Shown: positions 7,588 to 57,255, counted from the stretch's first letter. The stretch: 64,000 bases of DNA from an uncultured Pseudomonadota bacterium (GCA_949292375.1 CASEZG010000003.1:5510-69509), one strand, 5' to 3'. Program-made: numbers and translations. Notes: generated by a model from the sequence alone, not told the origin.

Positions 7588-7626
7588 TAAGATATCTCAG
7601 ATAAACTTTTATGAGGATTTTCTGTC

Positions 7627-9321: not shown

Positions 9322-9335
9322 GGGAGGATTAAGCT

Positions 9336-10178: not shown

Positions 10179-10199
10179 TAGAACTTTAGGAGAGAGAAA

Positions 10200-12458: not shown

Positions 12459-12499
12459 AATTAAGAATAATTCTAAAAACAAAAATTTCTCCCCTAAAG

Positions 12500-12528
12500 A
12501 AAAGACCGCCAGAAGGCGGTCTTTTTTA
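12500..12528 (+). terminator. Rho-independent terminator after flgE
   Basis: AGACCGCC-agaa-GGCGGTCT stem followed by T6. Confidence 0.85.
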
Positions 12529-12638
12529 ATTTAAATAAAAAGGGCTTGTGAATATATGTTAATTAATCGTTTTAATCTGAGAAAAATTAAGTTAATACAT
12601 AAAACAAATGGGGAAATATAAAGTATTTATTTTATAGA

Positions 12639-14270: not shown

Positions 14271-14285
14271 GATTGGAAATTCGTT

Positions 14286-15308: not shown

Positions 15309-15321
15309 CGGATAGAAGGCG

Positions 15322-16059: not shown

Positions 16060-16405
16060 GAATTTAGAGTTAGATGAGTTGAGTGAGAGTGCCGGAATGG
16101 ATGATGATCCGGTTCTCAAAAAAGACAATCTGGATGATAATTTTGATATTCCGAGTTCAGCTAGTGATTTGGAAGCTGTTTATGATATTCCGGTTAAGGT
16201 TTCTGCGATTTTAGGCAAGACCAAGATGAAGGTAAGCCAGTTGTTAAAACTTAACAAGGGTGCGATTATAGAGCTGGATCGTAAAGTCGGCGAGGCTATA
16301 GATATTTATGTTAATAATAATCTGGTTGCCAGAGGCGAGGTCGTTGTCGTAGACGACAAATTAGGAATAACAATGACCGAGATTGTCAAGTCGGTAACCA
16401 AATAG
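16046..16405 (+). CDS. fliN: Flagellar motor switch protein FliN
   Basis: C-terminal SpoA domain (IPVKVSAILGKTKMKVSQLLKLNKGAIIELDRKVGEAIDIYVNNNLVARGEVVVVDDKLGITMTEI). The ATG overlaps the end of fliH. Confidence 0.9.
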   Translation: MKMSENLELDELSESAGMDDDPVLKKDNLDDNFDIPSSASDLEAVYDIPVKVSAILGKTKMKVSQLLKLNKGAIIELDRKVGEAIDIYVNNNLVARGEVVVVDDKLGITMTEIVKSVTK

Positions 16406-16416
16406 GGTACAATAAG

Positions 16417-17733
16417 ATGGAATTGTTGATTGTCGGAACTTTGGACGGGCAAATAGGTGCAGCAAGTAAGATTGCCATAGCGCAAGGCGGACATGTGTCT
16501 TTGGCAGACAAGATAGAAAACGCCTTAGATATTTTGCGTTCCGGCAAAAACATTGAGTTAGTAATGATAGATGTCAAACTTGATGTTCACAAGTTCATCT
16601 CAAGTTTAGAAAATGAACGTATAAATGTTTTGGTCGTTGCGGCAGGTGTTTCCAATGACCCTGCTTTAGCCGTAAATGCGATTAAAGCCGGCGCAAAGGA
16701 GTATATTCCCTTACCTCCCGATCCTGAGCTTATAGGTGCGGTTTTGGCTGCGGCCACAAGAGAAAATCATGCCCTGATTTACGGAGATAAAAAAACCGAA
16801 CAGGTTTTGAAGTTAGCAAAACAGATTGCTCCGTCCGAAGCCAATGTTTTGTTAACGGGAGAGTCCGGTACGGGTAAAGAAATTTTTTCACGTTTTGTAC
16901 ATGACAATTCCAAAAGGGCAAATAAGAAATTTGTTGCGGTTAACTGTGCTGCAATTCCCGAAACCTTATTAGAATCAGAGCTTTTTGGCTATGAAAAAGG
17001 TGCGTTTACGGGAGCGGTAGCAAGACGTATCGGAAAGTTTGAGGAAGCCTCTGGCGGAACATTATTGTTAGATGAAATTTCAGAAATGGATATCAGAATA
17101 CAAGCAAAGTTGCTGAGAGCCATTCAAGAAAAAGAGATAGACCGCATCGGCGGCAAAGCCCCCATAAAGGTAGATACAAGAATTATCGCAACATCAAATC
17201 GCAATTTAGATGAAGCCGTAAAAAACGGCACTTTCAGACAAGATTTATATTATCGTTTGAATGTAGTTAATATCAATATTCCGCCTTTAAGAGAGCGTGC
17301 GGATGATATCATTGTCTTAGCTAAGCACTTTGTTAAGAAATATTCCGAGCTCAATGACATTGAAATAAAGCCGATAGCCAAATCAGCCGAAGAAAAATTG
17401 CTTAACTATCTGTGGCCGGGTAATGTGCGCGAACTGGAAAATACAATACATAGAGCCGTATTGTTGAGCACGGGCAAAGAGATTGATGAAAATGCAGTTA
17501 TTCTTGATTCTCCGGATTCCGTTATCAATAAGAGTGAAGGAGAAGTAATGACCGGAGCCGAGTTCGTCGGAAATACGGTTGCGAATATGGAACGTAATTT
17601 AATAATTGATACGCTGAAACATACAATGGGCAATCGAACCGTTGCCGCAAATATTCTGGGTATATCGATTCGCACATTAAGAAACAAATTAAAACAGTAT
17701 GAGAGCGAAGGCTTCAGTATTCCGGAAAATTAG
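16417..17733 (+). CDS. flbD: Sigma-54-dependent flagellar activator FlbD
   Basis: N-terminus aligns with Caulobacter FlbD ([31 protein letters not shown]). AAA+ core has GESGTGKE and an intact GAFTGA. C-terminal HTH present. Confidence 0.88.
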
Positions 17734-17753
17734 AATAGGTAATTAAAACAGGT

Positions 17754-19877
17754 ATGGCAAAGAAACCGCAAAATAACGCCGCAATGTTCGGTGGTAAATC
17801 TTTCAAAGATTTGCTGATATCTTCCACCAAAAGGGGAGATATTTTGTTTGCGTTCGGTATTGTCTTGATGTTGGTTATCTTGATTTTGCCGATGCCTGCC
17901 TGGCTGTTGGATATTGCGCTGGCATTATCAATCACCATGGCTTGCATGGTTTTGATGACCGCCATTTTTATTGAAAAGCCGACCGAGTTTAGTGCATTTC
18001 CTTTAGTCTTGTTGATTACAACAATGTATCGTTTGGCACTGAACTTGGCATCAACCCGCCTGATTCTATCTCGAGGTCACTTAGGTCCCAGTGCTGCCGG
18101 TGAGGTTATTGAGGCATTCGGCGGCTTTATCATGGGCAACAGCTTTGTTATCGGTGTCATTGTTTTTGCAATTTTGGTTATCGTTAACTTCGTAGTTATC
18201 ACCAAAGGTTCCGGCCGCATTGCGGAAGTTGCCGCTCGTTTTGCATTGGATGCAATGCCCGGTAAACAAATGGCAATAGACGCCGATTTATCATCGGGAT
18301 TAATTACGGAAGAAGAAGCTCGCAGTCGCCGTGAAGATTTAGCCAAAGAAAGCTCTTTCTATGGAGCAATGGACGGTGCATCTAAGTTTGTGCGCGGAGA
18401 TGCGATAGCCGGTTTAATCATTACGCTGATTAATATTGTTGCCGGTATAATTATCGGTATGGTTCAAAATGATTTAAGCTTTTCGGAAGCGGCAGAAACC
18501 TATACGCGTCTAACGGTCGGTGATGGTCTGGTAGCGCAGGTTCCGGCCTTGATTATCTCAGTGGCCGCAGGTATCTTGGTTTCTAAAGCCGGAATGACTG
18601 ATGCCACGGACAAAGTTTTATTTGACCAATTGGCCAATTATCCGAAAGCTTTGGGTATGTCATCTTTCTTGGCTTTGGCTTTGGGAATGTTACCGGGTAC
18701 GCCTGCCTTCCCATTTGTGTTGTTGGCTACGTTGACAGGAGGCACGGCATATTATTTGAACAAGCAGCAACAAGAAGCCGCGGCACAAGCTCAAGCTGTT
18801 ATGGAACAGGAGAAAAAGCAAGGAGCTGCCGCGAAAGCAGCAGATGAGCCGATAGCCAACGCTCTAAGAATAGACCTGATTAGACTTGAAATAGGTTATG
18901 GTTTGTTACCTTTGATAAATGAAGAAACAAACAGAAAACTAACGGACCAGATTAAAGCCCTGCGTCGAGCACTGGCTTCCGAGCTTGGTTTTGTTATGCC
19001 CTCCATCCGCATTCAAGATAATATGCAGTTAGAGGCGAATGAGTACAACATTTACATTAAGGAAGTTAAGGCAGGCAAAGGAGAACTTCGTCCGACGCAG
19101 TTATTGGTTATGGACCCTCGGGGTGAGCCGATAACCTTGCCGGGAGAAACCACAACCGAGCCGACCTTTGGCTTAAAAGCCATGTGGGTGGATCAATCAT
19201 ATCGTGAAGAAGCGATGTTTAGAGGTTATACAGTTGTTGACCCGGCAACGGTTGTGACCACACATATTACTGAGTTGGTTAAAGATAATATGCCGGAGCT
19301 TCTGTCTTATGCCGAAACGCAAAAACTTCTGGATGAGATGGATAAAGACCAACAGAAACTGGTTAAAGAGCTTATTCCAAGCAAAGTCAGCCTTGGAGCG
19401 GTTCAGCGCATTTTGCAGAATCTACTGCAAGAGAGAGTTTCCATCAGAGATTTGCCAACCATATTGGAGGGAATATCTGAAGCTGTTTCAACAACGCGTT
19501 CATTGATGATGATAACCGAACATGTCCGCACACGACTGGCAAGACAATTGTCAAATGCCAATACAAACGAATTTGGAGTTATACCGTTGGTAACTTTATC
19601 TCCGGAATGGGAAAGGGCTTTTGCGGAATCAATAATCGGGGAGGGTGATGAGCGTCAGTTAGCGATGGCGCCGACAGCGTTGCAGAGTTTTATTACCAAG
19701 GTACGTAATGTCTTGGAAGACTTGGCCGTTAAAGGAGAAACGGCAGTCTTGCTGACAAGTCCGGCGATTCGTCCATTCGTTCGCTCCATCATTGAGCGTT
19801 TTAGACCTCTAACCGTAGTTATGTCGCAAAATGAAATTCACCCCAAAGCCAAGATTAAAACAGTCGGTCAGATTTAA
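17754..19877 (+). CDS. flhA: Flagellar export apparatus protein FlhA
   Basis: 707 aa. Multiple N-terminal TMs, the FHIPEP motif region (GRIAEVAARFALDAMPGKQMAIDADL) and a cytoplasmic C-terminal domain. Confidence 0.97.
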   Translation: MAKKPQNNAAMFGGKSFKDLLISSTKRGDILFAFGIVLMLVILILPMPAWLLDIALALSITMACMVLMTAIFIEKPTEFSAFPLVLLITTMYRLALNLASTRLILSRGHLGPSAAGEVIEAFGGFIMGNSFVIGVIVFAILVIVNFVVITKGSGRIAEVAARFALDAMPGKQMAIDADLSSGLITEEEARSRREDLAKESSFYGAMDGASKFVRGDAIAGLIITLINIVAGIIIGMVQNDLSFSEAAETYTRLTVGDGLVAQVPALIISVAAGILVSKAGMTDATDKVLFDQLANYPKALGMSSFLALALGMLPGTPAFPFVLLATLTGGTAYYLNKQQQEAAAQAQAVMEQEKKQGAAAKAADEPIANALRIDLIRLEIGYGLLPLINEETNRKLTDQIKALRRALASELGFVMPSIRIQDNMQLEANEYNIYIKEVKAGKGELRPTQLLVMDPRGEPITLPGETTTEPTFGLKAMWVDQSYREEAMFRGYTVVDPATVVTTHITELVKDNMPELLSYAETQKLLDEMDKDQQKLVKELIPSKVSLGAVQRILQNLLQERVSIRDLPTILEGISEAVSTTRSLMMITEHVRTRLARQLSNANTNEFGVIPLVTLSPEWERAFAESIIGEGDERQLAMAPTALQSFITKVRNVLEDLAVKGETAVLLTSPAIRPFVRSIIERFRPLTVVMSQNEIHPKAKIKTVGQI

Positions 19878-19888
19878 GGAGATAGGTT

Positions 19889-20845
19889 GTGCGCATCAAG
19901 AAAATCACAGCCCCCGATATGCCGACTGCTTTGTCTCTGATAAGAGAAAGTCTGGGCCCTGATGCAGTCATAATTTCTGAGGAGCATAATGCCAAGGGAG
20001 AACTGGAATTAACTATAGCCTTAGAAGAGGCGGAGGAAATATCTTTCGATAAGGAAGATAGAGCAGAAGTTCGTCAAGCCAGATGGAAGTATGATGACGA
20101 GGCTCTCCGAGAAAGTTTAGAATATCATACGTTGTTAGATGTTGTAAAAGATAGAATATTGGCACGTTGTCGCAAGATTTCGGCAGAAGAGAACATCCGC
20201 GACGACAAAGAACTATTATCGCGTTGTTTTGCGCAAATGTTCAAGTTTCATGATGTTTTGGATTGCAAGCAACCGGTTAAAATGTTTATGGGCGTTCCGG
20301 GGTCAGGAAAATCCACAGCCATAGCCAAAGTTGCCACTCAGGCAAAAATACAAAAGCTTAGCGCCTGCATTATCTCAACGGACAATGTCAGAGCCGGAGC
20401 CAACAGCCAGTTGCAAGCCTTTGCCGATATCTTGGAAACAAATTTTCGGTTCGTAAAAAGCCCTCGAGGTTTATACGATATGGTTGAAGACGCCAAACAA
20501 AAATATGCCTTGGTTTTGATAGACACCCCCGGAATAAATCCTTTTTTGCAAGAAGAAGTTGAAAAAGTCAGCCTGATGACGGAGGCAGTCCGAGCAGATA
20601 TGATATTAACGATGGATGCCGGCAAAAATACAATGGAAGCCGTAGAGGTTGCGGATGTTTTTGCCGAAATAGGTGCAAATTATTTATTGCCGACGAGGTT
20701 GGACCTAACCCGCAGAATAGGAGCCTTATTATCGGTTGCCGGCTGTTGTGAACTAGGCTTCTGCGGCGCAAGCGTGAGCTCAAGCATAGCCAAAGGTTTG
20801 TCTGAAGTTGATAGCTTATCGTTGGCAAAATTAGTTTTATCCTGA
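19889..20845 (+). CDS. flhF: Flagellar placement SRP-type GTPase FlhF
   Basis: GTG start. N-terminal B-domain (IKKITAPDMPTALSLIRESLGPDAVIIS). G1 GVPGSGKST, G3 DTPG, G4 TRLD. Confidence 0.88.
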   Translation: MRIKKITAPDMPTALSLIRESLGPDAVIISEEHNAKGELELTIALEEAEEISFDKEDRAEVRQARWKYDDEALRESLEYHTLLDVVKDRILARCRKISAEENIRDDKELLSRCFAQMFKFHDVLDCKQPVKMFMGVPGSGKSTAIAKVATQAKIQKLSACIISTDNVRAGANSQLQAFADILETNFRFVKSPRGLYDMVEDAKQKYALVLIDTPGINPFLQEEVEKVSLMTEAVRADMILTMDAGKNTMEAVEVADVFAEIGANYLLPTRLDLTRRIGALLSVAGCCELGFCGASVSSSIAKGLSEVDSLSLAKLVLS

Positions 20846-20862
20846 AAGATGGGAGAAAGAAG

Positions 20863-21672
20863 ATGGAAGAAAAAGGACAAGAAGAATTACGGGTAATGCC
20901 GCGAGGCGGAATGCCGAGAGGAGCGCGCAAAGGTCGTAATATGATAGCCGTTGCATCAGGCAAAGGAGGCGTCGGCAAGACATGGTTTTCCATCACCTTA
21001 GCCCATGCTTTAAGTGGCTTAAGACAGAAAACGCTTTTGTTTGACGGCGATTTAGGACTGGCAAATATTGATATTCAACTAGGCTTAATGGTTAAGGACG
21101 ATTTAGGTAGCGTCATTAGCGGAGCCAAAACGCTTAATCAAGTTGTACATCATTGTGACAAGACACGATTTGATATCATAGCCGGCCGCTCAGGTTCGGC
21201 GGGCCTGGCTTCAATGCCGATAGGCAGATTGCAGATATTGGGTGAGGATTTGTCGCTTTTGACCTCAAATTATAACAAGGTTATTCTGGATATGGGGGCT
21301 GGTGTAGAAAAGCCCGTGCGTATTTTGTCCGGCATGGCGGAAAAAATTATTGTTCTTTGCACCGGAGAACCAACATCTTTAACCGATGCCTATGCTTTTA
21401 TAAAAATTATGACAATGCAGTATCCGAAATGTAATCTGAATGTGGTTATCAATCAGGCAAATTCCTTAAGAGAAGGACAAAGAACATATGATACATTGTT
21501 AAAAGCATGTCGTAATTTTCTGAAGATATCACCGGAGTTATTAGGTATAATCAGACATGACACCAGAGTGCGCGATTCTATCCGCAACCAAACGCCTCTG
21601 ATAAATAGATATCCGACGTCGGAAGCTGCAGAAGATGTTATAGAAATAGCAAGGAAATTGATAGATGAATAA
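20863..21672 (+). CDS. flhG: MinD/ParA-type flagellar number regulator FlhG (FleN)
   Basis: Deviant Walker A VASGKGGVGKT. Position immediately after flhF. Confidence 0.88.
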   Translation: MEEKGQEELRVMPRGGMPRGARKGRNMIAVASGKGGVGKTWFSITLAHALSGLRQKTLLFDGDLGLANIDIQLGLMVKDDLGSVISGAKTLNQVVHHCDKTRFDIIAGRSGSAGLASMPIGRLQILGEDLSLLTSNYNKVILDMGAGVEKPVRILSGMAEKIIVLCTGEPTSLTDAYAFIKIMTMQYPKCNLNVVINQANSLREGQRTYDTLLKACRNFLKISPELLGIIRHDTRVRDSIRNQTPLINRYPTSEAAEDVIEIARKLIDE

Positions 21673-23308
21673 TGTTATTCCGCCGCTGAATTCCCCACAG
21701 ATAAACACGCCGACAACAGAAAATTCGGTTACCGGCAGTATAGAAAATTTGGGTGGACAATTAAGCGGAGAAAACATTACAATCGGGCAAAGCGCAATGT
21801 TGGAAGTTTTGGCTTCCGCCAAGCAAAATGCTTTAAAAGCTTTGTCGGGAACAATCAGTCTGACAATCAATAACCAACTCGTAAAAATTCCCGTAGAAAT
21901 AAAATTAGATATACCGCTCAAATTGCCGGAAAATACATCTCCGCAAAATAACCAGACCAATAATATTGAGCTAAAGCTGCAACCGCAAAAAGATGGAGGC
22001 ATTGCGGTAAAACTTATTTCAATAAATAATGAAAATCCGACAAAGTTTATTATGCCGCAAACCGAAAATTTGCCCAAAAATGAAAATACTCAGGCAATAA
22101 TTAAAGACACGGGAACAAGACTTCCGCCGATGGAAACCACCCCGCTAAAAGCGACAAGCATACTTGAAAAAATGGTGGCAGAGTTGAAAATTCCGCAAAA
22201 CAAACTCCAACCTTTGATGCACGAATTTCAGAATATGTCATCACGAGTTTCCGTAAGTTTAAGTGAAGATTTTTCCTTATCGCAAAGTTTGCCTTTGAGT
22301 GAAAAAGCCTCTCAAAATATCCAACAAATTACAACAAATATTCAAAATTTGGTTAAAGATTTTAGTGATGGTAAAATAGATTTACCTGAAGCGATTCGAC
22401 AAATTAAAACCGAATTAAGCACCCTCAAAGGACAAACATTTATAACCCCTGCGGAAGTTCGTCCTGAAAATAATGTGGTCTTGCTTAAAACACCTTTGGC
22501 AGAACTTCCGTTAAAAGAAAGCGTTAAGTTAGGAAATGGTTTACCTTTGTTGCTTGAGGTCGAAGGTTTTGAAGAAATTTTGCCGCAATTATCCGAGCTT
22601 GAAACAAAACAAATAGCCACCGCGCAGGCGGCGTCAAAAAGCACCCCGCCGGACAATATTATGAAAATACTTCGTCCGCTGCTAAACGCCGGACAACAAG
22701 AGTTAGCCACAGCAGTCTTGAACAAAATTCCCCAACCCACATCACCGAAGATGTTGGCAAATATGGTGTCATACATCAAAGCCGGAAGCGAGCATAATCT
22801 AAGCAAGTGGTTGGGAGCAGAGATTGTAGACAAGCTAAGCGCGACCAAAGAGGGTAGAGAGGTTGTTGCCAAGTTGGGAACAATGTTTGTATCCTCCAAT
22901 CAGGATGGTATAAATTGGCGGATTATGGAAGTTCCCGTGCTCAACGGACAAACCATTAATAAAATCAGAATAGCCGTCAAAAAAATTTTGGATGAAGAGG
23001 AAAAGAAAAAGCGCAAAGAAAACAGGTTATACGGAACACGTTTTGTCGTAGATACCAATTTCAGCCGTCTGGGCTCATTTCAGTTTGATGGCTTCGCTCT
23101 GGCCAAAGATAAAAGATTTGATTTGGTTATCAGGACGGAAAAAGAAATCGGCTCGGATTTTTGTGCCAATATAATACGTTTGTTCAAAAATACGTTATAC
23201 GAGGAAGGATATTCAGGCAACGTCAAAATTAATGTTAAAGAAAAGTTTATTAAAGTATGCGAAGATAATGCAGAGAATGAATTTTTAGCAGACGGAATTT
23301 TCATATGA
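21665..23308 (+). CDS. Uncharacterised flagellar-operon protein, C-terminal region FliK-C-terminal-like
   Basis: Its ATG overlaps the flhG stop by 8 nt. 547 aa with no TM and a Pro/Asn/Gln-rich N-terminal half. The C-terminal pattern (FSRLGSFQFDGFALAKDKRFDLVIRTEKEIG..GYSGNVKINV) parallels the Flg_hook region of FliK in this window. Confidence 0.6.
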   Translation: MNNVIPPLNSPQINTPTTENSVTGSIENLGGQLSGENITIGQSAMLEVLASAKQNALKALSGTISLTINNQLVKIPVEIKLDIPLKLPENTSPQNNQTNNIELKLQPQKDGGIAVKLISINNENPTKFIMPQTENLPKNENTQAIIKDTGTRLPPMETTPLKATSILEKMVAELKIPQNKLQPLMHEFQNMSSRVSVSLSEDFSLSQSLPLSEKASQNIQQITTNIQNLVKDFSDGKIDLPEAIRQIKTELSTLKGQTFITPAEVRPENNVVLLKTPLAELPLKESVKLGNGLPLLLEVEGFEEILPQLSELETKQIATAQAASKSTPPDNIMKILRPLLNAGQQELATAVLNKIPQPTSPKMLANMVSYIKAGSEHNLSKWLGAEIVDKLSATKEGREVVAKLGTMFVSSNQDGINWRIMEVPVLNGQTINKIRIAVKKILDEEEKKKRKENRLYGTRFVVDTNFSRLGSFQFDGFALAKDKRFDLVIRTEKEIGSDFCANIIRLFKNTLYEEGYSGNVKINVKEKFIKVCEDNAENEFLADGIFI

Positions 23309-25902: not shown

Positions 25903-26100
25903 AAAAATCCCGCAACGGGATTTATAAATCAAAGGGAGGGGCCGTCTCAGCCGTATAATGACATTCTTATCGAACCGCTTCTCACAAAGTGGGTGCCATT
26001 TAATTAAACCAGGGTTTAAACAGTGACAGCTCCCTAAATAAAAATGTTGGCTCGGAAGATCTGCGGAAACAACGCACCGGACAGCTCGCCTCCTATGCCC
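25903..26100 (-). ncRNA. ssrS: Probable 6S RNA (ssrS)
   Basis: About 195 nt non-coding and GC-richer, immediately downstream of zapA (the classical zapA-ssrS synteny). It ends in a hairpin plus U-run (AAATCCCGTTGCGGGATTTTT on the - strand). The 5' GGAGG and 3' CCUCC segments and internal stems can pair into a rod-like fold. Ends are approximate. Confidence 0.5.
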
Positions 26101-39290: not shown

Positions 39291-40456
39291 ATACAGATGT
39301 AATCGTTTATGAAAAAAAGAATAATCTGACCCGTATTGCCATGCTCGGCGCAGGCGAGTTGCAAGAGATTGAGTTTGTCAAAGAAAATCAAGCAGCGGAA
39401 GGCAACATCTATCTGGGCAAGATAACCCATAAGCTGGATTTGGCGCATGATAAGGTCGGCTTTTTTGTAGATATTGCCGATGGTAAAGATGCCTTTCTGA
39501 ATGCTGAGGAAGCAGGACTGAATGAAGCTAATATGACGGAAGGCCAAAGTCTGGTCGTTCAGGTCGCACAAGAGCAACGCGCCGAGAAGGGGGCAAAGGT
39601 TGTCCGCTCCATTCAGATTGTCGGACCGCATTTGGTCTATTGTCCCTATCGTTTGCATGTAGAGGCATCTCCGCGCATTGAAGATAAAGAGAAATTGGCA
39701 GAATATAAGGAAAAAGTATTGGAAAATACCACAGGTCAGGAAGGTTGGATTCTGCGCACTTCTTCGGTAGAAGTTCCGTTCGAGATTTTAGCCGAGGAGA
39801 TGAAAAGCCTGCGTGAGATTTATGAGAATGTCCGCATCAAAGCCCGCAACGCCAAGGCTCCAGCTTTGTTATATGCCAAAGCAGATCCTCTGGCAGAATA
39901 TATTATGCGCTCACAGCCGGCTTTGACCAAGGTTGTAGTGAACAATCATAATGTTGAAAATGAGCTAAAGGAAGCTTTTAAAGGCGAGTTTGCAGTAGAA
40001 TATATGGCAGAGCCTTTTGCTGAATATGGTTTGGAAGAGGCGATTTCTGAGGCCTTGCAAAAGACGGTTCGCTTAAAGAGCGGCGGACGTATTCACATTG
40101 AGGAGACCAGAGCTTGCGTTGCCATAGATGTAGACAGTGGTGATGACAAGTCTAACGGCTCCATCACAAGGTTAAATTCTGAGGCCGCAGTAGAAATCGC
40201 ACGCCAAATTCGCCTGCGCAATTTATCAGGTAAGATTATTGTAGATTTTGCCGGTTCTTCGGAATACAAGTTTTTGAAGCCGGTTATTGAGGAGTTGGAA
40301 AATGCTTTGGCGGAAGACCCGCATCGTGCAAGGGTTTTGGGCTTGAGCCGTGGCGGCAATGTAGAGATTCAGCGCGTTCGCCGTCGTCCGACCCTTTCAG
40401 ATGTCTTGACCACCGAATGTGAAACTTGTCAGGGCACGGGGAGGGTTGCCAAATGA
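39287..40456 (+). CDS. rng: Short RNase E/G-family ribonuclease
   Basis: S1-like N-terminus (GNIYLGKIT..GFFVDI), a DNase-I-like site (ACVAIDVDSG) and a C-terminal CETCQGTG Zn-link. Fits the maf-rng-yacG synteny. Confidence 0.85.
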   Translation: MNTDVIVYEKKNNLTRIAMLGAGELQEIEFVKENQAAEGNIYLGKITHKLDLAHDKVGFFVDIADGKDAFLNAEEAGLNEANMTEGQSLVVQVAQEQRAEKGAKVVRSIQIVGPHLVYCPYRLHVEASPRIEDKEKLAEYKEKVLENTTGQEGWILRTSSVEVPFEILAEEMKSLREIYENVRIKARNAKAPALLYAKADPLAEYIMRSQPALTKVVVNNHNVENELKEAFKGEFAVEYMAEPFAEYGLEEAISEALQKTVRLKSGGRIHIEETRACVAIDVDSGDDKSNGSITRLNSEAAVEIARQIRLRNLSGKIIVDFAGSSEYKFLKPVIEELENALAEDPHRARVLGLSRGGNVEIQRVRRRPTLSDVLTTECETCQGTGRVAK

Positions 40457-40668
40457 GCGAAGTCATAAAAACTTATCGCTGCCCCATATGCAAAAAAATC
40501 GCTCCTGCGGGAAAATATAAACCCTTTTGCTCCAAACGCTGTGCAGATATAGACTTAGGCAATTGGTTTAATGAGTGTTACCGCATTCCGGCAGAGGAGC
40601 TGGACGAAGAGGACTATGAGGAGCTTGAAAAAGAGCTTGAAAAACAAAAAGCAGATACGGAAGAATAA
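40453..40668 (+). CDS. yacG: DNA gyrase inhibitor YacG (zinc finger)
   Basis: CPICKK..FCSKRCADIDLGNWF signature. ATGA overlap with the rng stop. Confidence 0.85.
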   Translation: MSEVIKTYRCPICKKIAPAGKYKPFCSKRCADIDLGNWFNECYRIPAEELDEEDYEELEKELEKQKADTEE

Positions 40669-40669
40669 C

Positions 40670-40701
40670 AAAAACCCCTCGCATAACCGCGAGGGGTTTT
40701 T
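40670..40701. terminator. Bidirectional terminator (yacG / ankyrin gene)
   Basis: CCCCTCGC-ataacc-GCGAGGGG stem flanked by an A-run and a T-run. Confidence 0.85.
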
Positions 40702-40708
40702 GTTGATA

Positions 40709-41374
40709 CTACAGTAAATCGTAAATATTTTTTTTGCTCTTAAGTATATTTCGTATCTCATTAATATCGCCATCAGAACAAAAGCCTTGATTTATTAGAG
40801 CATCTAAAACTCTATTATCAGTTTTTTTTGTGTCAGCATATTTAATGGCGCGGGCAAAATAAACATAATTAGACTTATTTTGTTCTCCGATTAAAATTTT
40901 ATCAGATGGAATCATCATAATAATTTCGGGTTGGTCAGTAGCAATAGCAAGATCTGTTATTGTCATTCCCTTAGCTAAGACATCAAGATTAGCTCCTTTT
41001 TCTATCAAAAATTTGGCAATTTCAGGTTTTTTAATGAATATGGCCAACTGGAGCGGCGTATTTCCGCCATGGAGCGGACTATCAATATCAATATTGTTTT
41101 TTAAGAAAAAATCTATGACGTCAATCGGGTTTGGCGCATTAATTAAAGCTGCTTCAAAATGGTTAGTTTTATAATAAAAATCACTTTTAGTAATATTCAT
41201 TGGATTATAACCATTTTCTAGCATATCAGACATTGTTTGAATATCGCCGTTATCTGCGGCTTGATTAAATTTCCACCAAGACCAATAAGAAATGTTAAAA
41301 ACGAGATTAGCCAAAAGCCAAACAATAAAACAGCCGCCCAGAATAAGTCCGAAATATTTGAAAAACTTTTTCAT
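40709..41374 (-). CDS. Membrane-anchored ankyrin-repeat protein (221 aa)
   Basis: N-terminal signal anchor MKKFFKYFGLILGGCFIVWLLANLVF. ANK repeats (GGNTPLQLAIFIKKPEIAKFLIEKGANLDV). Confidence 0.8.
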   Translation of the reverse strand: MKKFFKYFGLILGGCFIVWLLANLVFNISYWSWWKFNQAADNGDIQTMSDMLENGYNPMNITKSDFYYKTNHFEAALINAPNPIDVIDFFLKNNIDIDSPLHGGNTPLQLAIFIKKPEIAKFLIEKGANLDVLAKGMTITDLAIATDQPEIIMMIPSDKILIGEQNKSNYVYFARAIKYADTKKTDNRVLDALINQGFCSDGDINEIRNILKSKKNIYDLL

Positions 41375-41440
41375 AGAAGATACTCCGTCATCTCAAAGAT
41401 AGCTGTATTTTAGCCAAATCAAGATAATATTTGGTTAAAA
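41333..41440 (-). repeat. 108-bp repeat copy 1 (5' coding end plus upstream region of the ankyrin gene)
   Basis: Identical to 42710-42817 except one base (G/A at 41379/42756). It covers codons 1-14 (MKKFFKYFGLILGG), the Shine-Dalgarno and a promoter-like TTGATT..TATCTT containing the CCAAAT-N9-ATTTGG dyad. Confidence 0.95.
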
Positions 41441-41441
41441 C

Positions 41442-42224
41442 TCAGACTGATGTTTTAATAGATTTTGCCAAGGGCTCATAACCATTTTCAACCAAATATT
41501 TTCTTGTCTGAAAAGTGGTTTTAGGACCGAGTTTTCCATCAATATCAAGAGGGGGAATAGCTCCTAGAATATTCAAACTTTTTTGTAAAGCTTTAACTCC
41601 ATCATTGGATGAATTGTTGTCAATAAGAGTCAGTTGTTCAGACAAATTTTGCAGACTATTTTCTATTGTATTACCATCTTTTGCTAACAGGGGCTTTTTA
41701 TGTTGAGAACTGAGCTTAGTATTTGTTGTAATCTGCCTTCCTGTAGCATCTCTTTTAACGGGAGCTGTTCCGTAAATATTGTTGTACCAAGAAGAAATTT
41801 TATCATTTATCTGTTTTCCTAAGGAAACATCATCATTATCAAACATAGCAAATTTCTTAGCTTTAAGAATATCATCACTGTCAAGATTCTGAATAGGATT
41901 TAATAAAATATCCAGTTCAGGACGATAGTTTTGAGTAAAACTATTCATATATTCTTTGCTCCGCTCAGAATGTTGTTCTTTAAATAAATTTTCCTTATTA
42001 TCAGGACTCTTATTAGGAAATGGAGAATTTTTGAGTCCATTAGGAAAAAAATTATTTTCATATTTTTTTCCTATTTCATAAACTTTTTCTTCATTTAAAG
42101 GGTCAGACATTATAACATTAGACCATTCATCGTCAATATTATTACTTTCTAGAGATTTTTTTAAAATATTCCCCAAACGTGTTTGATAGAATTTTTGTTT
42201 TAAATATTCTTTTAAGTTACTCAT
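41442..42224 (-). CDS. Leaderless hypothetical protein with C-terminal peptidoglycan-binding (PG_binding_1-like) motif
   Basis: GGGAGA Shine-Dalgarno before ATG 42224. No signal peptide. The N-terminal ~190 aa are Asn/Lys-rich with no recognisable motif. The C-terminus GVKALQKSLNILG..IDGKLGPKTTFQTRKYL fits PG_binding_1. Confidence 0.65.
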   Translation of the reverse strand: MSNLKEYLKQKFYQTRLGNILKKSLESNNIDDEWSNVIMSDPLNEEKVYEIGKKYENNFFPNGLKNSPFPNKSPDNKENLFKEQHSERSKEYMNSFTQNYRPELDILLNPIQNLDSDDILKAKKFAMFDNDDVSLGKQINDKISSWYNNIYGTAPVKRDATGRQITTNTKLSSQHKKPLLAKDGNTIENSLQNLSEQLTLIDNNSSNDGVKALQKSLNILGAIPPLDIDGKLGPKTTFQTRKYLVENGYEPLAKSIKTSV

Positions 42225-42241
42225 TTTGATTTCTCCCAAAA

Positions 42242-42266
42242 TAAAAAGGGGCTGAAGTCAGCCCCT
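42242..42266 (-). terminator. Intrinsic terminator/attenuator between ank154 and the PG-binding gene
   Basis: On the - strand: GGGGCTG-actt-CAGCCCC followed by TTTTTAT. Only about 18 nt separate it from the next Shine-Dalgarno. Confidence 0.7.
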
Positions 42267-42286
42267 TTCAAAAAATTATGATAAAA

Positions 42287-42751
42287 TTATTGATATTGCT
42301 CAATTGCTTTAATAATCTCTGAATTATCTGTGATACGAGCAATATCAAGTAGTGTTTTATTGTTTATTTTATAAGATGCATCTGTACCATATTCTAAAAG
42401 AAGTTTTATAATATCTGCACGTTCTTCCATAATAGCATGATGTATAGGCAGAAGTCCGTTTTTACTTTTAAAATTAACATCAGCACCATGATTGAGCATA
42501 AACTTAATTGTGTTATAATCACTTTTTGCGTAGGATATTGCCGCCAGTAAAGGAGAAACACGCATAAAGCTTTGATTAATATCAAATCCTTGATTTAAGA
42601 TTTCTTGCATTTGCAAAATATCATTTTTTTCAGCTGCTTCCACAAAATTTCCCCAGTCGCTGTAAATATAATAAAAAATATTCCATATCAAAACAACAGC
42701 CACAATTAAGCCGCCCAGAATAAGTCCGAAATATTTGAAAAACTTTTTCAT
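42287..42751 (-). CDS. Membrane-anchored ankyrin-repeat protein (154 aa)
   Basis: Same first 14 aa as the 221-aa paralog, then a diverged TM. ANK repeats (NGLLPIHHAIMEERADIIKLLLEYGTDA). Confidence 0.8.
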   Translation of the reverse strand: MKKFFKYFGLILGGLIVAVVLIWNIFYYIYSDWGNFVEAAEKNDILQMQEILNQGFDINQSFMRVSPLLAAISYAKSDYNTIKFMLNHGADVNFKSKNGLLPIHHAIMEERADIIKLLLEYGTDASYKINNKTLLDIARITDNSEIIKAIEQYQ

Positions 42752-42817
42752 AGAAAATACTCCGTCATCTCAAAGATAGCTGTATTTTAGCCAAATCAAG
42801 ATAATATTTGGTTAAAA
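42710..42817 (-). repeat. 108-bp repeat copy 2
   Basis: See copy 1. 107/108 identical while the rest of the two genes is strongly diverged. Confidence 0.95.
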
Positions 42818-42843
42818 AAACCGCCTGATAAAGGCGGTTTTTA
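42818..42843. terminator. Bidirectional terminator after ftsI
   Basis: ACCGCCT-gataa-AGGCGGT stem. T7 follows on the - strand. Confidence 0.85.
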
Positions 42844-42921
42844 AATACACTAAGAGCAAGTGACAAAAGAATAATATCAAAAATTTTTCAAATTGTCAAG
42901 GATTATATTCCTAAAATATCC

Positions 42922-44670
42922 TTACCTTCCGTAAGAAGCCTCAATAATCCGATTCCGTCTTTGTTCATCAAGGTCATAATTAGCCTTAATATTCAGTTGC
43001 GGTGCGATGGTTGAAATAATCTTTCCGGCAGTCGGAACCGTATTCCAACCGGAAGTAACAAAGCCCCAAGTATCTTTGGTTGCTTTAGGCTCATCCATCA
43101 TCAGGAATAAGGCATATTGCGGATTTGAGGCCGGAAAAGTAGCCAAGAAAGAGGTCATAACTTTTTTGTTAATATATTTGCCGTCTACCAGTTTGTTGGC
43201 TGTTCCGGTCTTGCCGGCAACTTCATAACCCAAAACATTGGCGCGTTTGCCGGAACCTTCCACAACAACACCGCGAAGCAATTGGCGCATTTCTTTAGAT
43301 GTATTGAAGGAAACGACACGATGGCTCAATGTGTTTTTGTTGTCCTTTATAAGTGTCGGTTCATGATAAATTCCGCCGTTGATAACACCGGCAAAAGCAC
43401 TGATTAAGTGTAATGGCGTAACCGAAATGCCGTATCCGTAGCCAATTGTTGCTGTTGTTTCTTCGCCCCAGCGTTTCGGTACAAGAGGGTAGCCTCTTTC
43501 TGCTACTTCAATACTTTTGATTGGTTCGAAGAAACCAAGATTTTTTAGGAAGTTTTGCTGCTCTTTTTTGCCAACTTTCAAAGCAATTTGGGCTGAGCCG
43601 ATGTTAGAGGAATAAATCAAGACTTCTTGCAAAGTCAGCCACCGATTTTCGCCGCGATAATCCTTGATGGTGTTATAGCGGAGTTTTAAGGGCTTGGTTG
43701 CGTCAAAACTATCAGCCATTTTAACTTTTCCGCTTTCCAAACCAAGCGCGGCATTAAAAATCTTCAAAACCGACCCCGGTTCATAAACGCCTTTTGTCGC
43801 AAAATTAAATTGTGCGCGCGGTATTTTATAATTATTAAGATTCGGGTCATAGTCAGGCAGGGAAATCATAGAGATAATTTCACCATTCTTAACATCCATG
43901 AGGATCGCGGCGGCACCATCGGCATTAAATTTTTCAACAGCAGCAGCGAGTTCGTTACGAATAGTATCCTGAATACCGGCATCAATGGTCAGCTGCAGCG
44001 GAATGTCTGATTCTGTTAAGCGATCATCAAGTTTCTTTTCAAGGCCGGATATTCCCTTGTTATCAATATTTGTGTTACCCAAGATATGAGCAAAGAGGTT
44101 TTTATGCGGATAAATGCGTTTTTCTCCGTCTTCAAAATCCAGCCCCGGAATACCCAGATAATTAATTTGATATTGTTGAGAAGGGGAAAGGTTGCGTTTG
44201 ATATAAACAAAACTGCCTCTGCGTTGGAGCTTTGATAAAATATCTTCATAACGCATATCAGGAAAAATACGGCTTAATTCGGCGGCAGCTTTTTTAGCGT
44301 TAAGAATTTTTCTGGGGTTGGCATAAAGGTTAACTGTGGGGAGAGATGTGGCAATAATTGTGCCATTGCGGTCAAGAATATCGGCACGTTTAATAGGGTT
44401 TGCGGCATAGGCGCGAATAGTGTCGGACTCATCGGCGGTTTGGGTTTCTGTGTTGTTGGGTGTAATGCAGACATTAAACAATCTGATGCCGATAACCGCA
44501 TATACCAACAAAAACATCAAGGTAGCAAAAGCGACACGATTCTTGCAGGTGGAAAGAGGGTCTTTCTCACAGGTATAGTTATTAAAAGAAAAACTCTTAT
44601 CAATCTTAATTTCCTGACCTGGAAGATAAAAATTTTTCTCCTCGCGGCCGGAAAAATACTTTCCCCACAT
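42922..44670 (-). CDS. ftsI: Peptidoglycan D,D-transpeptidase FtsI (PBP3)
   Basis: 582 aa with N-terminal TM, a PBP dimerisation domain, SxxK (GSVLK), SSN and KTGT motifs. dcw position. Confidence 0.95.
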   Translation of the reverse strand: MWGKYFSGREEKNFYLPGQEIKIDKSFSFNNYTCEKDPLSTCKNRVAFATLMFLLVYAVIGIRLFNVCITPNNTETQTADESDTIRAYAANPIKRADILDRNGTIIATSLPTVNLYANPRKILNAKKAAAELSRIFPDMRYEDILSKLQRRGSFVYIKRNLSPSQQYQINYLGIPGLDFEDGEKRIYPHKNLFAHILGNTNIDNKGISGLEKKLDDRLTESDIPLQLTIDAGIQDTIRNELAAAVEKFNADGAAAILMDVKNGEIISMISLPDYDPNLNNYKIPRAQFNFATKGVYEPGSVLKIFNAALGLESGKVKMADSFDATKPLKLRYNTIKDYRGENRWLTLQEVLIYSSNIGSAQIALKVGKKEQQNFLKNLGFFEPIKSIEVAERGYPLVPKRWGEETTATIGYGYGISVTPLHLISAFAGVINGGIYHEPTLIKDNKNTLSHRVVSFNTSKEMRQLLRGVVVEGSGKRANVLGYEVAGKTGTANKLVDGKYINKKVMTSFLATFPASNPQYALFLMMDEPKATKDTWGFVTSGWNTVPTAGKIISTIAPQLNIKANYDLDEQRRNRIIEASYGR

Positions 44671-47985: not shown

Positions 47986-48372
47986 GAACAGGCGACCGGA
48001 TAGCTGCTTTGCGGAAAGGAAAATCCGCCAAAGAGGAAAGTCCGGGCTTCAAGGAAACAAGATACCGGATAACGTCCGGCCGGAGAAATCCGAGGGAAAG
48101 TGCCGCAGAAATATACCGCCTTTTTTTGAAAAGGTAAGGTTGAAAAGGCGAGGTAAGAGCTCACCGCAAAATCGGCAACGGTTTTGGCAAGGTAAACCCT
48201 ATCTGAAGCAAGACCAAGTTAGGAGGGCTGAGGCTTTGTGCCTTGGTTATACGGAGGGTTTCCACTCTGCTCCAGAGGTAGGTCGCGTTGAGCCGCATAG
48301 TAATATTCGGCCAAGATGAATAGCTATCGCGCCGCAAGGCGTACAGAACCCGGCTTATAGGTCGCCTAAAAA
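47986..48372 (+). ncRNA. rnpB: RNase P RNA (bacterial type A)
   Basis: + strand conserved blocks: GAGGAAAGTCCGGGCTTC, GGTAAGGTTGAAAAGGCGAGGTAAGAGCTCACCGC, GGTAAACCC..GAAGCAAGACCAAG, AGATGAATAGCT and ACAGAACCCGGCTTATAGGTCGCC. P1 pairs AGGCGACC (47990) with GGTCGCCT (48360). Confidence 0.92.
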
Positions 48373-48397
48373 GTTTTTTGTTCATAAGGAGTTGCAT

Positions 48398-55313: not shown

Positions 55314-55389
<76 letters not shown>

Positions 55390-55391
55390 CT

Positions 55392-55421
55392 AAAAAAGCC
55401 TCCCTTGTGGAGGCTTTTTTA
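55392..55421 (+). terminator. Terminator after tRNA-Thr (copy 1 of a duplicated 34-bp module)
   Basis: AGCCTCC-cttgt-GGAGGCT flanked by A6 and T6. The same module recurs at 55643-55677. Confidence 0.85.
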
Positions 55422-55481: not shown

Positions 55482-55642
55482 AAAGCTAAAAAATGCCCCT
55501 GATGGTGCTTTTTTTAGCTTTGTGAAAAGAACTTGTTGATTTGTGAAGCCGCGACAGCGAGCAAAACAAATGCTACAAGTATCTTTGACCGAAACGCAGT
55601 TAGTTTTGCAATAATAAGCAAAACTTACGAAGTTAGAGCCAT

Positions 55643-55677
55643 TAAAAAAGCCTCCCTTGTGGAGGCTTTTTTTAGTG
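55643..55677. repeat. Copy 2 of the terminator module, nested in a CTTACGAAGT/ACTTCGTAAG inverted repeat
   Basis: TAAAAAAGCCTCCCTTGTGGAGGCTTTTTTTAGTG is identical to 55391-55424 apart from one extra T. It probably terminates the - strand gene at 55734-56342. Confidence 0.85.
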
Positions 55678-55733: not shown

Positions 55734-56342
55734 TTAAGGGATAGTTTCAAGAAGATTGTCAACAGCTTCTGTCGGCCTTGAGTTATTTTTGTATTCATAC
55801 AAAGAAAAAATCTCATCGTCGCAAAAATGCTTTACGGCCAAGTGAACAATATCTCCCTTTTGTGTCGCCACCAATGGATTGATAAATTCATCCAAAGCGC
55901 GAAGTGCAACAAAACTTTTGTCAGTTCCTTTAATCAAGCAAAAATAAAAATTTTGCGGAATATAGCTTCCGTTCCAAATCTCAAAAGGCATATGTATAAG
56001 GAAGATTTCTTCAACCGCATAATCATAAGTTGCTAGATTTTTGCCCAAGTTGACATTTTTCCATTTAACGGAAAGATTTTGACATTTTTCAACTCCCAGA
56101 ACGCGAGATCTTGGATATACGCTGAAAAGCGTTATAAGCATTTTATCGCCTTTTTGGGCTAACAGAAAATAAGGCAAATCGTTAATCTTTACGGCGCATC
56201 TAAATGTCTTGTTATCCGAGGTCAAGATGTCACAGCTAAAAGGAAATTCATAGTTACCGCAATATTCGCAATGAATATTTTCAACACAAAACTGCAAATA
56301 ATATACCTTTTCGCTTTTGCTAAAAGAATAAATAGTTTTCAT
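55734..56342 (-). CDS. Hypothetical protein (202 aa) with apparent internal duplication
   Basis: Two ~85-aa halves share SDNKTF/GTDKSF and AQKGDKMLITL/TQKGDIVHLAV. It is Cys-rich, with no TM and a weak Shine-Dalgarno. Confidence 0.5.
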   Translation of the reverse strand: MKTIYSFSKSEKVYYLQFCVENIHCEYCGNYEFPFSCDILTSDNKTFRCAVKINDLPYFLLAQKGDKMLITLFSVYPRSRVLGVEKCQNLSVKWKNVNLGKNLATYDYAVEEIFLIHMPFEIWNGSYIPQNFYFCLIKGTDKSFVALRALDEFINPLVATQKGDIVHLAVKHFCDDEIFSLYEYKNNSRPTEAVDNLLETIP

Positions 56343-56480: not shown

Positions 56481-57059
56481 TTAAGATAGGTAATATATAT
56501 AGTAACCAAGGCCGAGGTAAAAACCAAAGACATATTCGCCCCAGTTCCATCCCTCTTTGCCTAAAGCATAATAATTTTCCAGTTTAGAGCCGAGCCAATA
56601 GCACGGCCCCATTCCCAGCCCCCAAAACATAAAACCCACGGACTGTGAGGCAAGTCCCATCAAAAAAGTCAAGATGAACCCCGTCAAACATGTTCCGACA
56701 AAGCCGAATATTTTGGGATATTCACTCAGGTAGACCACATTCCCTTTAATGGAAATGTGTAGCGGCAAGAGCAAATCATCAATCAATTCGCATTCCTTAT
56801 CAACATTTGGGTCAACTTCTTTGCCGTTATAAATGCGTGAGACATAAACACCCCAGCCATAAAGCTGATAACCGGCATAAGCTGCGATAAATGCAGTTAA
56901 GGCCAAATTAAAAGAAAAGCCTTCCGCCAAGCAGATAATAATACTGAAGAAGATCGCGTACCAGATTTTGTTAAACGGCAATTTTTTGTCGCCGAAACGT
57001 AACCCGCCACGGACTCTCCACAGAAAGGAAGAGACAAATGTCACTAATACAATATACAT
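56481..57059 (-). CDS. Hypothetical polytopic membrane protein (192 aa)
   Basis: About 5-6 hydrophobic helices, Trp/Tyr/Gly-rich, with N-terminal WRVRGG. A TTGACA-N17-TATCTA promoter-like site lies upstream on the - strand. Confidence 0.6.
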   Translation of the reverse strand: MYIVLVTFVSSFLWRVRGGLRFGDKKLPFNKIWYAIFFSIIICLAEGFSFNLALTAFIAAYAGYQLYGWGVYVSRIYNGKEVDPNVDKECELIDDLLLPLHISIKGNVVYLSEYPKIFGFVGTCLTGFILTFLMGLASQSVGFMFWGLGMGPCYWLGSKLENYYALGKEGWNWGEYVFGFYLGLGYYIYYLS

Positions 57060-57255
57060 TCAAGATGTCCTTTTTTTTTACAATTAAAGACAGAATTGTA
57101 GATAGCATATAAAATTTAAGTTGTCAAGGATAAAATTCCTATTTTAGGATAAAAAGCCTTGACAAAAGTATTTTTTGGGTGTAAAGGTAAAATATCACAT
57201 AGCATAACTGTAACCTCAAAGCGATGGATTTTCCCGTCGTTTTTTTTGTGCAACA

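Follow-up and report, generated by a model that had tools for sequence, protein, structure and literature searches.

Colicin M and pesticin are leaderless bacteriocins that act on the cell wall or its precursors and are countered by immunity proteins facing the periplasm (Cmi, which is membrane-anchored, and Pim, respectively); colicins have a C-terminal killing domain and N-terminal uptake domains, and are plasmid-borne together with lysis genes. The X-Tfe effectors are also leaderless, with lipase and peptidoglycan (PG)-binding variants among them, and TtsA serves toxin secretion. In Bdellovibrio bacteriovorus the exported ankyrin protein Bd3460, encoded in the same operon as a DD-endopeptidase gene, neutralises the enzymes Bd3459 and Bd0816 in the periplasm by direct binding (PMC4686830). 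Tli, a membrane-tethered periplasmic ankyrin lipoprotein, neutralises the lipase Tle of the Enterobacter cloacae type VI secretion system (T6SS), and must be periplasmic to protect (bioRxiv 10.1101/2023.03.28.534661). Ankyrin proteins (Imm-ank) are a listed immunity class of polymorphic toxin systems (Zhang et al. 2012, PMC3482391). TfcB, an effector of the Xanthomonadales type IV secretion system (T4SS), has a GH19-like domain at its N-terminus and a T4SS-recognition domain at its C-terminus (PMC11253643). We compare with these systems an array of genes for ankyrin-repeat (Ank) and PG-binding-like (PG) proteins that lies between ftsI and yacG in an uncultured Pseudomonadota bacterium (GCA_949292375.1 CASEZG010000003.1:5510-69509; this whole stretch of 64,000 nucleotides (nt) is called "the window" below). 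From sequence comparisons we lean, by no great distance, toward the view that the array is a polymorphic effector/immunity-type system built of modules, each consisting of an ank gene, a hairpin and a PG gene.

The nearest named relative of the window is Candidatus Scatocola faecigallinarum. Three minus-strand open reading frames (ORFs) stand between yacG, rng, maf and dksA on the plus strand and ftsI, ftsL, rsmH and mraZ on the minus strand, the housekeeping genes being named from Pfam matches of their orthologues. A first-pass annotation, made from the sequence alone, had described three minus-strand genes wedged between two conserved blocks in an AT-rich segment, and both parts of that description are confirmed by the ORFs and flanks and by the guanine-plus-cytosine (GC) content, which is 0.26-0.34 over 40600-43000 and 0.41-0.49 in the flanks. 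The spacers measure 170 nt (ftsI to ank154), 62 nt (ank154 to the PG gene) and 67 nt (PG gene to ank221).

We read about 30 related loci in ENA, JGI, Logan and GTDB assemblies; the flanks are alike in all of them and the content of the gap differs. Metagenome-assembled genomes (MAGs) of Candidatus Scatocola-like gut bacteria carry one to five ank or PG genes in the ftsI-yacG gap, varying in number, order and decay. Below, PGc denotes the C-terminal segment of about 170 amino acids (aa) that the PG proteins share, and A, B and C denote their N-terminal types. The window holds ank154, PG(A) and ank221. A locus of the same species (L007; FtsI 98.6% identical in amino acid sequence) holds ank221, PG(B), ank221, PG(B) and ank154, and L008 and L018 hold ank221, PG(B) and ank154. 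The order is ank194, PG(C), ank157, PG(A), ank221 in L003-L005 and L022, with an added PG remnant in L004, and ank157, PG(A), ank221, ank155 in L009, L010 and L019. Some gaps contain only ank194 and PG(C) (L025, L029) or only ank221 and PG(B) (L027; L028 is a shorter contig ending after the PG gene), frameshifted copies are present in L023, and L035-L040 have ank157, a dead PG(A) and ank155. A genome scan with a narrower family alignment gave matches in 5 genomes only. The ftsI-yacG gap is a hypervariable array, with no fixed three-gene cassette. The first-pass annotation had named a housekeeping protein conserved at this junction in all relatives as a case against its reading. The junction is indeed occupied in every relative sampled, as the housekeeping case would have it in form, but what occupies it varies, decays and duplicates, and the comparative evidence favors a fast-evolving, recombining module.

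Within the arrays, the order of neighboring genes follows their type. PG(B) always stands directly after an ank221-type gene, in two species (L007, L008 and L018; L027 and L028), PG(C) always stands directly after ank194, and PG(A) is preceded by ank157 or, in the window, by ank154. Arrays made of a single pair run ank then PG (L025, L029, L027). Pairing of each PG gene with the ank gene downstream was considered and rejected: what comes after PG(B) varies (ank221, ank154 or nothing), and its upstream partner is constant. An ank body and the next N-domain have no repeat between them, so that their adjacency cannot be an assembly artefact. A distant homologue, P0019 (35% identical), is likewise preceded by a gene for a transmembrane (TM) ankyrin, at another locus (L032) beside a TatA-like gene. 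In these sequences the unit of the array is a TM-anchored ank gene, a hairpin and a leaderless PG gene. We read ank154 and the type A PG protein of 260 aa as a putative live pair, and ank221 as an orphan in the window, a putative immunity gene against type B whose PG(B) partner is present in sister strains. The proposal that two ankyrin paralogs flank a single toxin gene is therefore set aside, the unit being ank then PG and ank221 an orphan of another module. The broader suggestion of an effector/immunity module is supported in part, by the linkage of ank type with N-type, by the decay of PG genes with ank genes kept and by the toxin heads of relatives; it is the grouping of the genes that has to be redrawn.

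Variation is partitioned sharply along the module. The PG N-domain, about 75-85 aa long, comes in at least three types (A, B, C) that are unrelated in sequence. Compared with the sister strains L007 and L008, only 41977-42281, comprising the hairpin and N-domain A, is unmatched; the rest of the window array is 98-99% identical to theirs, and the housekeeping flanks only 94-95%. For PGc, identity across N-types is 97.7-98.9% inside one species and drops to about 50% between species, and the same N-type across the species boundary is 66% identical. The ank leader is a 109-nt direct repeat, 99% identical between its two copies in the window and absent from the earlier annotation. It behaves as PGc does, being homogenised within species, and L004 has three copies of 121 nt that are 92-95% identical. 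Despite this leader repeat the ank154 and ank221 proteins are only 34% identical overall. Between the window species and the L004 species, amino acid identity is 98% for DksA, 92% for FtsI, 87% for Rng and 83% for RsmH, and it is 63% for ank221, 62% for ank154 against ank155 and 54.5% for PG(A). The ank155 that gives this 62% is the terminal orphan ank of L009, from another species; ank154 is only 45% identical to the A-linked ank157 of other species. By comparison, ank221 is 100% identical to the L007 ank221 that precedes PG(B), and its family comprises 7 clusters in total. The constant segments are, then, homogenised within a genome or species, and lie on either side of a variable cassette that comprises ankyrin body, hairpin and N-domain.

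PG genes are frequently broken and ank genes are not. P0021, which with 268 index blocks is the allele found most widely in the database, is a PG(A) that has a frameshift and has lost PGc, and alleles of this type sit between intact ank157 and ank155 in L035-L040 (e.g., L035:4458-5922). P0004 is a further frameshift allele and P0012 carries an internal deletion. Right after the ank221 stop codon of L004 there is a PGc remnant (L004:11525-11790) with no N-domain and an internal deletion, and its deleted form recurs in P0012, fused to N-type A. The last ~35 nt of PGc are all that remains between ank221 and ank155 in L009, and in L007 the whole module is duplicated in tandem. The many truncated or frameshifted PG alleles, the low GC of the segment and the occurrence of distant homologues in T7-like prophages would suit a functionless, decaying remnant of a phage or mobile element, its variability coming from neutral recombination and erosion. 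We hold this to be distinctly improbable. Almost all of the ~30 loci have intact ank ORFs, with one frameshifted copy seen (L023); different species keep the pair architecture, ribosome-binding sites (RBSs), promoter unit and hairpins, with compensatory changes; homogenisation has held the constant parts at 98-99% identity, where erosion would have been expected of a remnant; and the family was not found in 50,697 phage genomes or in PHROGs.

Table 1. Features of the ftsI-yacG gap and its borders in the window, in the direction of array transcription (UTR, untranslated region)
Feature	Position	Strand	Remarks
ftsI	42922-44670	-	upstream neighbor of the array
Array promoter	42871-42912	-	palindrome AGGAATATAATCCT overlapping -35 TTGACA; 17-nt spacer; -10 TATTAT
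Short leader or candidate ~50-nt RNA	42818-42868	-	invariant TGTCACTTGCT, small hairpin, terminator hairpin 42818-42843 with T7 run
Constant ank leader, copy 1	42709-42817	-	67-nt 5' UTR with RBS, and codons 1-14 of ank154
ank154 (type S1)	42287-42751	-	Ank_2 E 7.1e-22; TM segment residues 3-31
Intrinsic-terminator-like hairpin between ank154 and PG gene	42244-42269	-	11-bp stem and T run; 20 nt 5' of PG start codon
Central PG gene (260 aa)	41442-42224	-	ATG at 42224; stop codon 41442-41444
PG N-domain type A, residues 1-86	41967-42224	-	variable; homologues only inside the PG-protein family
PG constant helical domain, residues 87-205	41610-41966	-	motif DxLLK...WYxxxYGxxPxxxDATGRxI
PG_binding_1/PG_binding_3-like domain, residues 206-260	41445-41609	-	predicted from weak Pfam matches, family matches and model
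Constant ank leader, copy 2	41332-41440	-	5' UTR and codons 1-14 of ank221
ank221 (type L)	40709-41374	-	Ank_2 E 3.8e-14
Bidirectional terminator of yacG (+) and array (-)	40667-40704	both	16-bp perfect inverted repeat
yacG	40426-40668	+	convergent with the array

The bracketing hairpins had been called strong, and these two and the internal one are all far more stable than shuffled controls, to which folding energies are compared below as z. The folding energy is -28 kcal/mol for each strand of the hairpin at 40667-40704 (z -7.8 and -9.7), -18.6 kcal/mol for that at 42244-42269 (z -4.4) and -14.7 kcal/mol for that at 42818-42843 (z -4.3). A GC-rich hairpin and T run stand just 5' of the PG RBS in every ank-to-PG spacer that we read, which covers the three module types and several species. 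The sequences of these hairpins differ between loci and, compared by eye, the differences are compensatory: the stem is GCGCAAT/ATTGCGC in L007 and GCGCAAC/GTTGCGC in L027, and GGGGCTG/CAGCCCC in the window and GGGGACTG/CAGTCCCC in L004. A hairpin conserved in this manner fits the prediction that more Ank than PG protein is made, and the attenuated read-through proposed earlier gains from it. The companion statement, that the spacer leaves no room for a separate promoter, does not strictly hold, since a sigma-70-like site matching 9 of 12 positions (TTGAGC-17-CATAAT) lies at 42303-42275, 5' of the PG gene; this weak, promoter-like site may allow the PG gene to be transcribed independently.

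The array promoter matches the sigma-70 consensus at 11 of 12 positions, and an alignment shows its motif kept in 8 loci, the distant L032 among them. The leader folds at -16.7 kcal/mol (z -4.3) and is kept across species and in L032; the stem of the small hairpin beside TGTCACTTGCT varies in sequence by species. The unit of promoter palindrome, TGTCACTTGCT and terminator (42818-42915) is found also in the ftsI-to-ank spacers of L004, L009, L019, L022, L025, L027 and L035. It is placed between the ank and PG genes in L032 (1209-1320) and is missing from L007-type strains. The unit may be an attenuating leader, or an RNA of ~50 nt that travels with the cassette; a target search for such a leader RNA gave no site complementary to TGTCACTTGCT in the window.

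Two other elements touch the regulatory sequences of the array. A second copy of the palindrome with its -35, AGGAATTTTATCCTTGAC, lies at 57123-57140 on the minus strand, 5' of the ORF 56481-57059 (a 192-aa multi-TM protein); the motif thus occurs twice in 64 kb, with 0.14 copies expected by chance, and the second copy may reflect an operator or regulon common with the array promoter. The last codons of the PG gene (41486-41506) and the start of the ank leader (41420-41440; also 42797-42818) form a 21-nt inverted repeat, 90% complementary. When 41486-41506 pairs with 41420-41440, the stop codon of the PG gene falls inside the structure (-24.3 kcal/mol, z -3.5), and the leader start is also able to fold alone as a CCAAAT...ATTTGG hairpin. 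This pairing could be a processing, stability or switching element.

The flanking proteins were annotated as ankyrins with an N-terminal anchor and periplasmic repeats, and the data agree. Both score above the Pfam threshold for Ank_2 (53.4 bits for ank221 and 78.2 bits for ank154; cut-off 27.3), and each has a single hydrophobic segment right after MKKFFKY (residues ~3-30). With a positively charged N-terminus and one TM helix, the positive-inside rule predicts that the ankyrin repeats face the periplasm. The motif LILGGC raised the possibility that ank221 is a lipoprotein, which was rejected; neither ank154 nor the orthologues keep its Cys, past which the hydrophobic stretch runs on, and ank221 is therefore treated as signal-anchored. 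The Ank proteins fall into four types. An anti-phage defence reading was also rejected, because the PADLOC anti-phage models gave generic ankyrin-repeat matches only, and the PG protein and its long homologues had no match.

The organism lives in association with a host (gut metagenomes) and its Ank proteins show a generic similarity to Dot/Icm Ank effectors, as would be expected if they were secreted, host-targeting effectors in the style of Legionella or the Rickettsiales, functionally unrelated to the PG gene. The first-pass annotation had named this case as one that would undo its reading. It is very improbable, we believe: the Dot/Icm matches are at the level of the repeat only (15-30 bits against cut-offs of 500-1400), the signal anchor looks uncleaved, no T4SS genes are visible in the window, and the tight, type-specific linkage of ank then PG extends across species and to a second locus.

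The 260-aa PG protein is devoid of any hydrophobic segment and is leaderless, as had been annotated. Its first ~190 residues were originally treated as one region without a familiar motif; they divide into a variable N-domain of ~85 aa and a conserved helical domain, which behave in opposite ways in evolution. The C-terminus, described at the outset as PG_binding_1-like, falls below the Pfam thresholds on its own (PG_binding_1 16.9 bits, cut-off 23; PG_binding_3 12.9 bits, cut-off 24.6), and matches of homologues, the structural model and Foldseek all speak for the assignment. An AlphaFold2 (AF2) model of residues 87-260, built on a 53-sequence alignment, has a predicted local distance difference test score (pLDDT) of 95.4 and a predicted template modeling score (pTM) of 0.88; the full-length model (12-sequence alignment) has a pLDDT of 42 and is unusable. 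Foldseek gave local matches of the constant part, over ~57-77 residues, to TtsA and to a phage baseplate-hub/tail-lysozyme protein (prob 1.0); the match to Salmonella Typhi TtsA 6v40 has a prob of 0.8 over 57-76 residues, with a root-mean-square deviation of 1.9-2.7 Å. We take the matched parts of these proteins to be wall-binding domains, and the C-terminal domain of the PG protein is predicted to be a PG-binding-like three-helix bundle. The helical domain (residues 87-205) has no fold match in the PDB or BFVD and no sequence match in the PDB, PHROGs, NCBIfam or Pfam, and a search of PDB sequences with the family profile gave no match. The window protein has no catalytic-domain match in Pfam, NCBIfam, PHROGs or the PDB. 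It also has no match to NF040573, a model of holin-associated muramidases, for which the homologues P0064 and P0067 reach 22-29 bits against a cut-off of 240.

Close homologues of the PG protein form 12 clusters among 5.8 billion proteins, none of them named. A profile search of 1.84 billion representatives retrieved 264 proteins at E <= 1e-3, of which 86 were at E <= 1e-10; the 264 are clusters at 50% identity, and are a lower bound for the family of the helical domain. Many of them are 400-650 aa long and match in their C-terminal half. Among 60 long relatives, Pfam finds PG_binding_3 in 43 (best E 1.3e-12), PG_binding_1 in 18 and LysM in two, and in their N-terminal parts Ntox44 in seven, Phage_lysozyme in three and Lipase_3 in one. 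In other recurrent N-domains a conserved His precedes a GxNC motif, and these we read as probably cysteine-peptidase-like. Dozens of N-types occur across the whole family, and no signal peptide is evident among the long-relative N-termini listed.

Pairs that are polymorphic and have a constant wall-binding part, with N-domains lacking an enzyme signature, might also be a non-toxic lock-and-key module of the envelope, in which the pairs signal identity, so that kin or self is recognised, or form a tether between inner membrane and wall; in Scatocola-like genomes the locus adjoins the division and cell-wall cluster, as such a role would suggest. We consider this unlikely in view of the bona fide toxin or hydrolase domains borne by the long homologues. 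Moreover, PG genes are often pseudogenes while ank genes last, and the PG protein lacks the signal peptide that would take it to the periplasm of its own cell. The L032 pair lies beside the TatA-like gene and not beside ftsI, so linkage to the division cluster is no property of the family.

Long members of the family are also present in prophages. In the T7-like prophages L014 (6524-9605; Thalassospiraceae LMO-JJ14) and L016 (7263-9641), from marine or soil alphaproteobacteria, a long member lies between holin and tail-tubular genes. The two prophages are otherwise near-identical, and the N-domain is swapped between them together with adjacent, divergently transcribed multi-TM genes; such multi-TM neighbors also stand beside non-prophage members in L021 and L033. 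The PG family had no tblastn match in the 50,697 phage genomes and none in pattern scans of IMG/VR, and its PHROGs matches are confined to the PG-binding stretch. On these negatives the idea of a core phage protein, which the two prophages had raised, was rejected, and the prophage copies are accordingly regarded as cargo.

A prophage homologue directly after a holin gene nevertheless brings to mind a holin/endolysin pair of the type 10 secretion kind, in which the ankyrin would let the leaderless PG protein cross the inner membrane and remodel the cell's own wall. The order ank then PG would parallel holin then lysin, and one N-terminal TM helix with a periplasmic domain is the topology of a class III holin. 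The resemblance of the C-terminus to TtsA, a holin-associated muramidase, and the weak NF040573 matches of P0064 and P0067 point the same way. Yet the window protein has no catalytic domain, type-specific co-variation of Ank and N-domain is not expected of holins, and a lysis cassette would need the reverse of a terminator that keeps PG expression below that of Ank. Orphan ank genes, and a commonest allele in which a dead PG gene lies between intact ank genes, would make no sense for a holin. On balance we find this reading quite unlikely.

Fast divergence, homogenised constant segments, cassette exchange, orphan ank genes with PG decay, toxin heads in relatives and an upstream gene predicted to be the more strongly expressed together form the signature of a polymorphic effector/immunity system. 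As polymorphic toxins require, a constant part is joined to alternative, unrelated variable domains, with the polarity reversed, and a neighboring gene co-varies with the variable domain (ank type with N-type across the ~30 loci; multi-TM genes in L014 versus L016). Our best reading of these sequences is that the PG/ank array represents a new family of polymorphic effector/immunity systems, one that varies at the N-terminus and not, as is usual, at the C-terminus.

A mechanism consistent with the effector/immunity reading can be outlined. The Ank protein would be anchored in the inner membrane and present its repeats to the periplasm, and the PG protein would leave the producer cell to act in the periplasm or on the wall of neighbors of the same or a related species. 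There the PG-binding domain would hold it on the sacculus; the constant helical domain would serve export or import, and the N-domain would be the specificity-determining and possibly toxic part, bound and neutralised by the cognate periplasmic ankyrin, which the hairpin would hold in excess over the PG protein. The exchangeable cassette consists of the ankyrin body and the PG N-domain. Gene conversion would keep the constant segments identical, so that they could serve as substrates for homologous recombination, which would duplicate, delete and swap modules. In the window, ank221 would be retained against the type B proteins that sister strains make.

Several observations weigh against the effector/immunity reading. 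All of the comparison sequences are metagenome assemblies, representing about three species of one genus and one distant locus, and the order and copy number of array genes across repeats of 109 nt and ~520 nt could be mis-assembled or collapsed. The pairing is not one-to-one: type A is preceded by an S1 ankyrin in the window and elsewhere by an S2 ankyrin that is 45% identical to S1. The N-domains of the array are short and polar, their model is of low confidence (pLDDT 42) and a catalytic signature is missing from them; they may thus be something other than toxins. By Pfam the PG protein has no trafficking domain of known polymorphic toxins. Immunity-first gene order and an N-terminal variable domain both reverse the classical arrangement. 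Finally, among the ORFs of the 64-kb window no type I secretion system, T4SS or T6SS genes were recognised, the flagellar cluster excepted, in keeping with what the first-pass annotation had reported.

A bolder proposal, possible though doubtful, is that the helical and PG-binding module constitutes an undescribed alphaproteobacterial delivery route for leaderless, wall-targeted effectors, with a C-terminal, species-specific determinant; that the ~85-aa N-domains are new, small, non-enzymatic periplasmic toxins neutralised by anchored ankyrins; and that strains of this gut lineage compete by shuffling the array. Speculatively, the concerted, species-specific evolution of PGc would fit a need to match a species-specific export or uptake machine.

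The flagellar genes form a cluster on the plus strand at 7600-23300 of the window, in which hook, FliF, FliG and FlhA-like proteins were recognised by eye from ORF translations; the flagellar export apparatus is the sole protein-export machine recognised near the array among the ORFs of the window. Rfam places a 6S RNA at 25935-26090 and a class A RNase P RNA at 47988-48373. Farther along, a 34-nt terminator-like sequence, AAAAAAGCCTCCCTTGTGGAGGCTTTTTT, is directly repeated at 55387-55420 and 55639-55672 (252 nt apart, 97% identical). The repeat adjoins a tRNA gene (55314-55386) and is followed by two AT-rich ORFs with no assigned function, 55734-56342 and 56481-57059; the duplication may be att-like or mark the edge of a small island.

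The lineage comprises uncultured alphaproteobacteria found in many human and animal gut metagenomes, and a strain-variable effector/immunity array would offer a direct handle on competition between its strains as well as a natural strain marker. The family of the helical domain, at least 264 clusters at 50% identity with lysozyme, lipase, Ntox44 and putative cysteine-peptidase-like heads in relatives, is unannotated. The layout is unusual, with the putative immunity gene first, then an attenuator hairpin, a variable N-terminus and a concerted C-terminus, and may point to a new mechanism of export or import for signal-less, wall-directed proteins. If the immunity role is true, the short list of periplasmic ankyrin immunity proteins is extended.

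Each of the systems introduced at the beginning resembles the array in part. Unlike the colicins, the PG protein has no recognisable TonB box or receptor-binding domain. In comparison with the X-Tfe effectors and Tfc proteins, the constant domain here precedes the PG-binding domain and gave no PDB match by sequence or fold, and no T4SS genes were seen in the window. TtsA is leaderless like the PG protein, and the C-terminal domain is the sole part of the PG model with a structural match in the PDB; however, TtsA has an N-terminal muramidase domain, whereas the PG protein has none and is paired with polymorphic ankyrins.

Bd3460 is similar in that an ankyrin is encoded beside a peptidoglycan-directed protein. 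Its target Bd3459 is a Sec-exported enzyme of the PBP4 type with a signal peptide, whereas the PG protein lacks a leader and any recognised catalytic domain. Once its signal is cleaved Bd3460 is soluble; it has six repeats and lies outside any polymorphic array; the Ank proteins here look signal-anchored and shorter, and are of four types. The Tle/Tli pair shares with the array an effector without a signal peptide and a membrane-tethered periplasmic ankyrin. The order is reversed, tli being downstream of tle and ank upstream of the PG gene, and Tle is a lipase delivered by a T6SS, whereas no such system was recognised in the window and the partner is wall-binding-like. The polymorphic toxin systems of Zhang et al. 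(2012) place the variable end and the immunity gene opposite to the arrangement described here, and Imm-ank was described for cytoplasmic nuclease and deaminase toxins, whereas these Ank proteins are predicted to be periplasmic and anchored. With those systems the array nonetheless has in common a constant region with exchangeable domains, a tightly linked and co-varying putative immunity gene, orphan genes of this kind, fast evolution and frequent recombination, and the Ntox44 domain of polymorphic toxins is also present in the long-form relatives of the PG protein.

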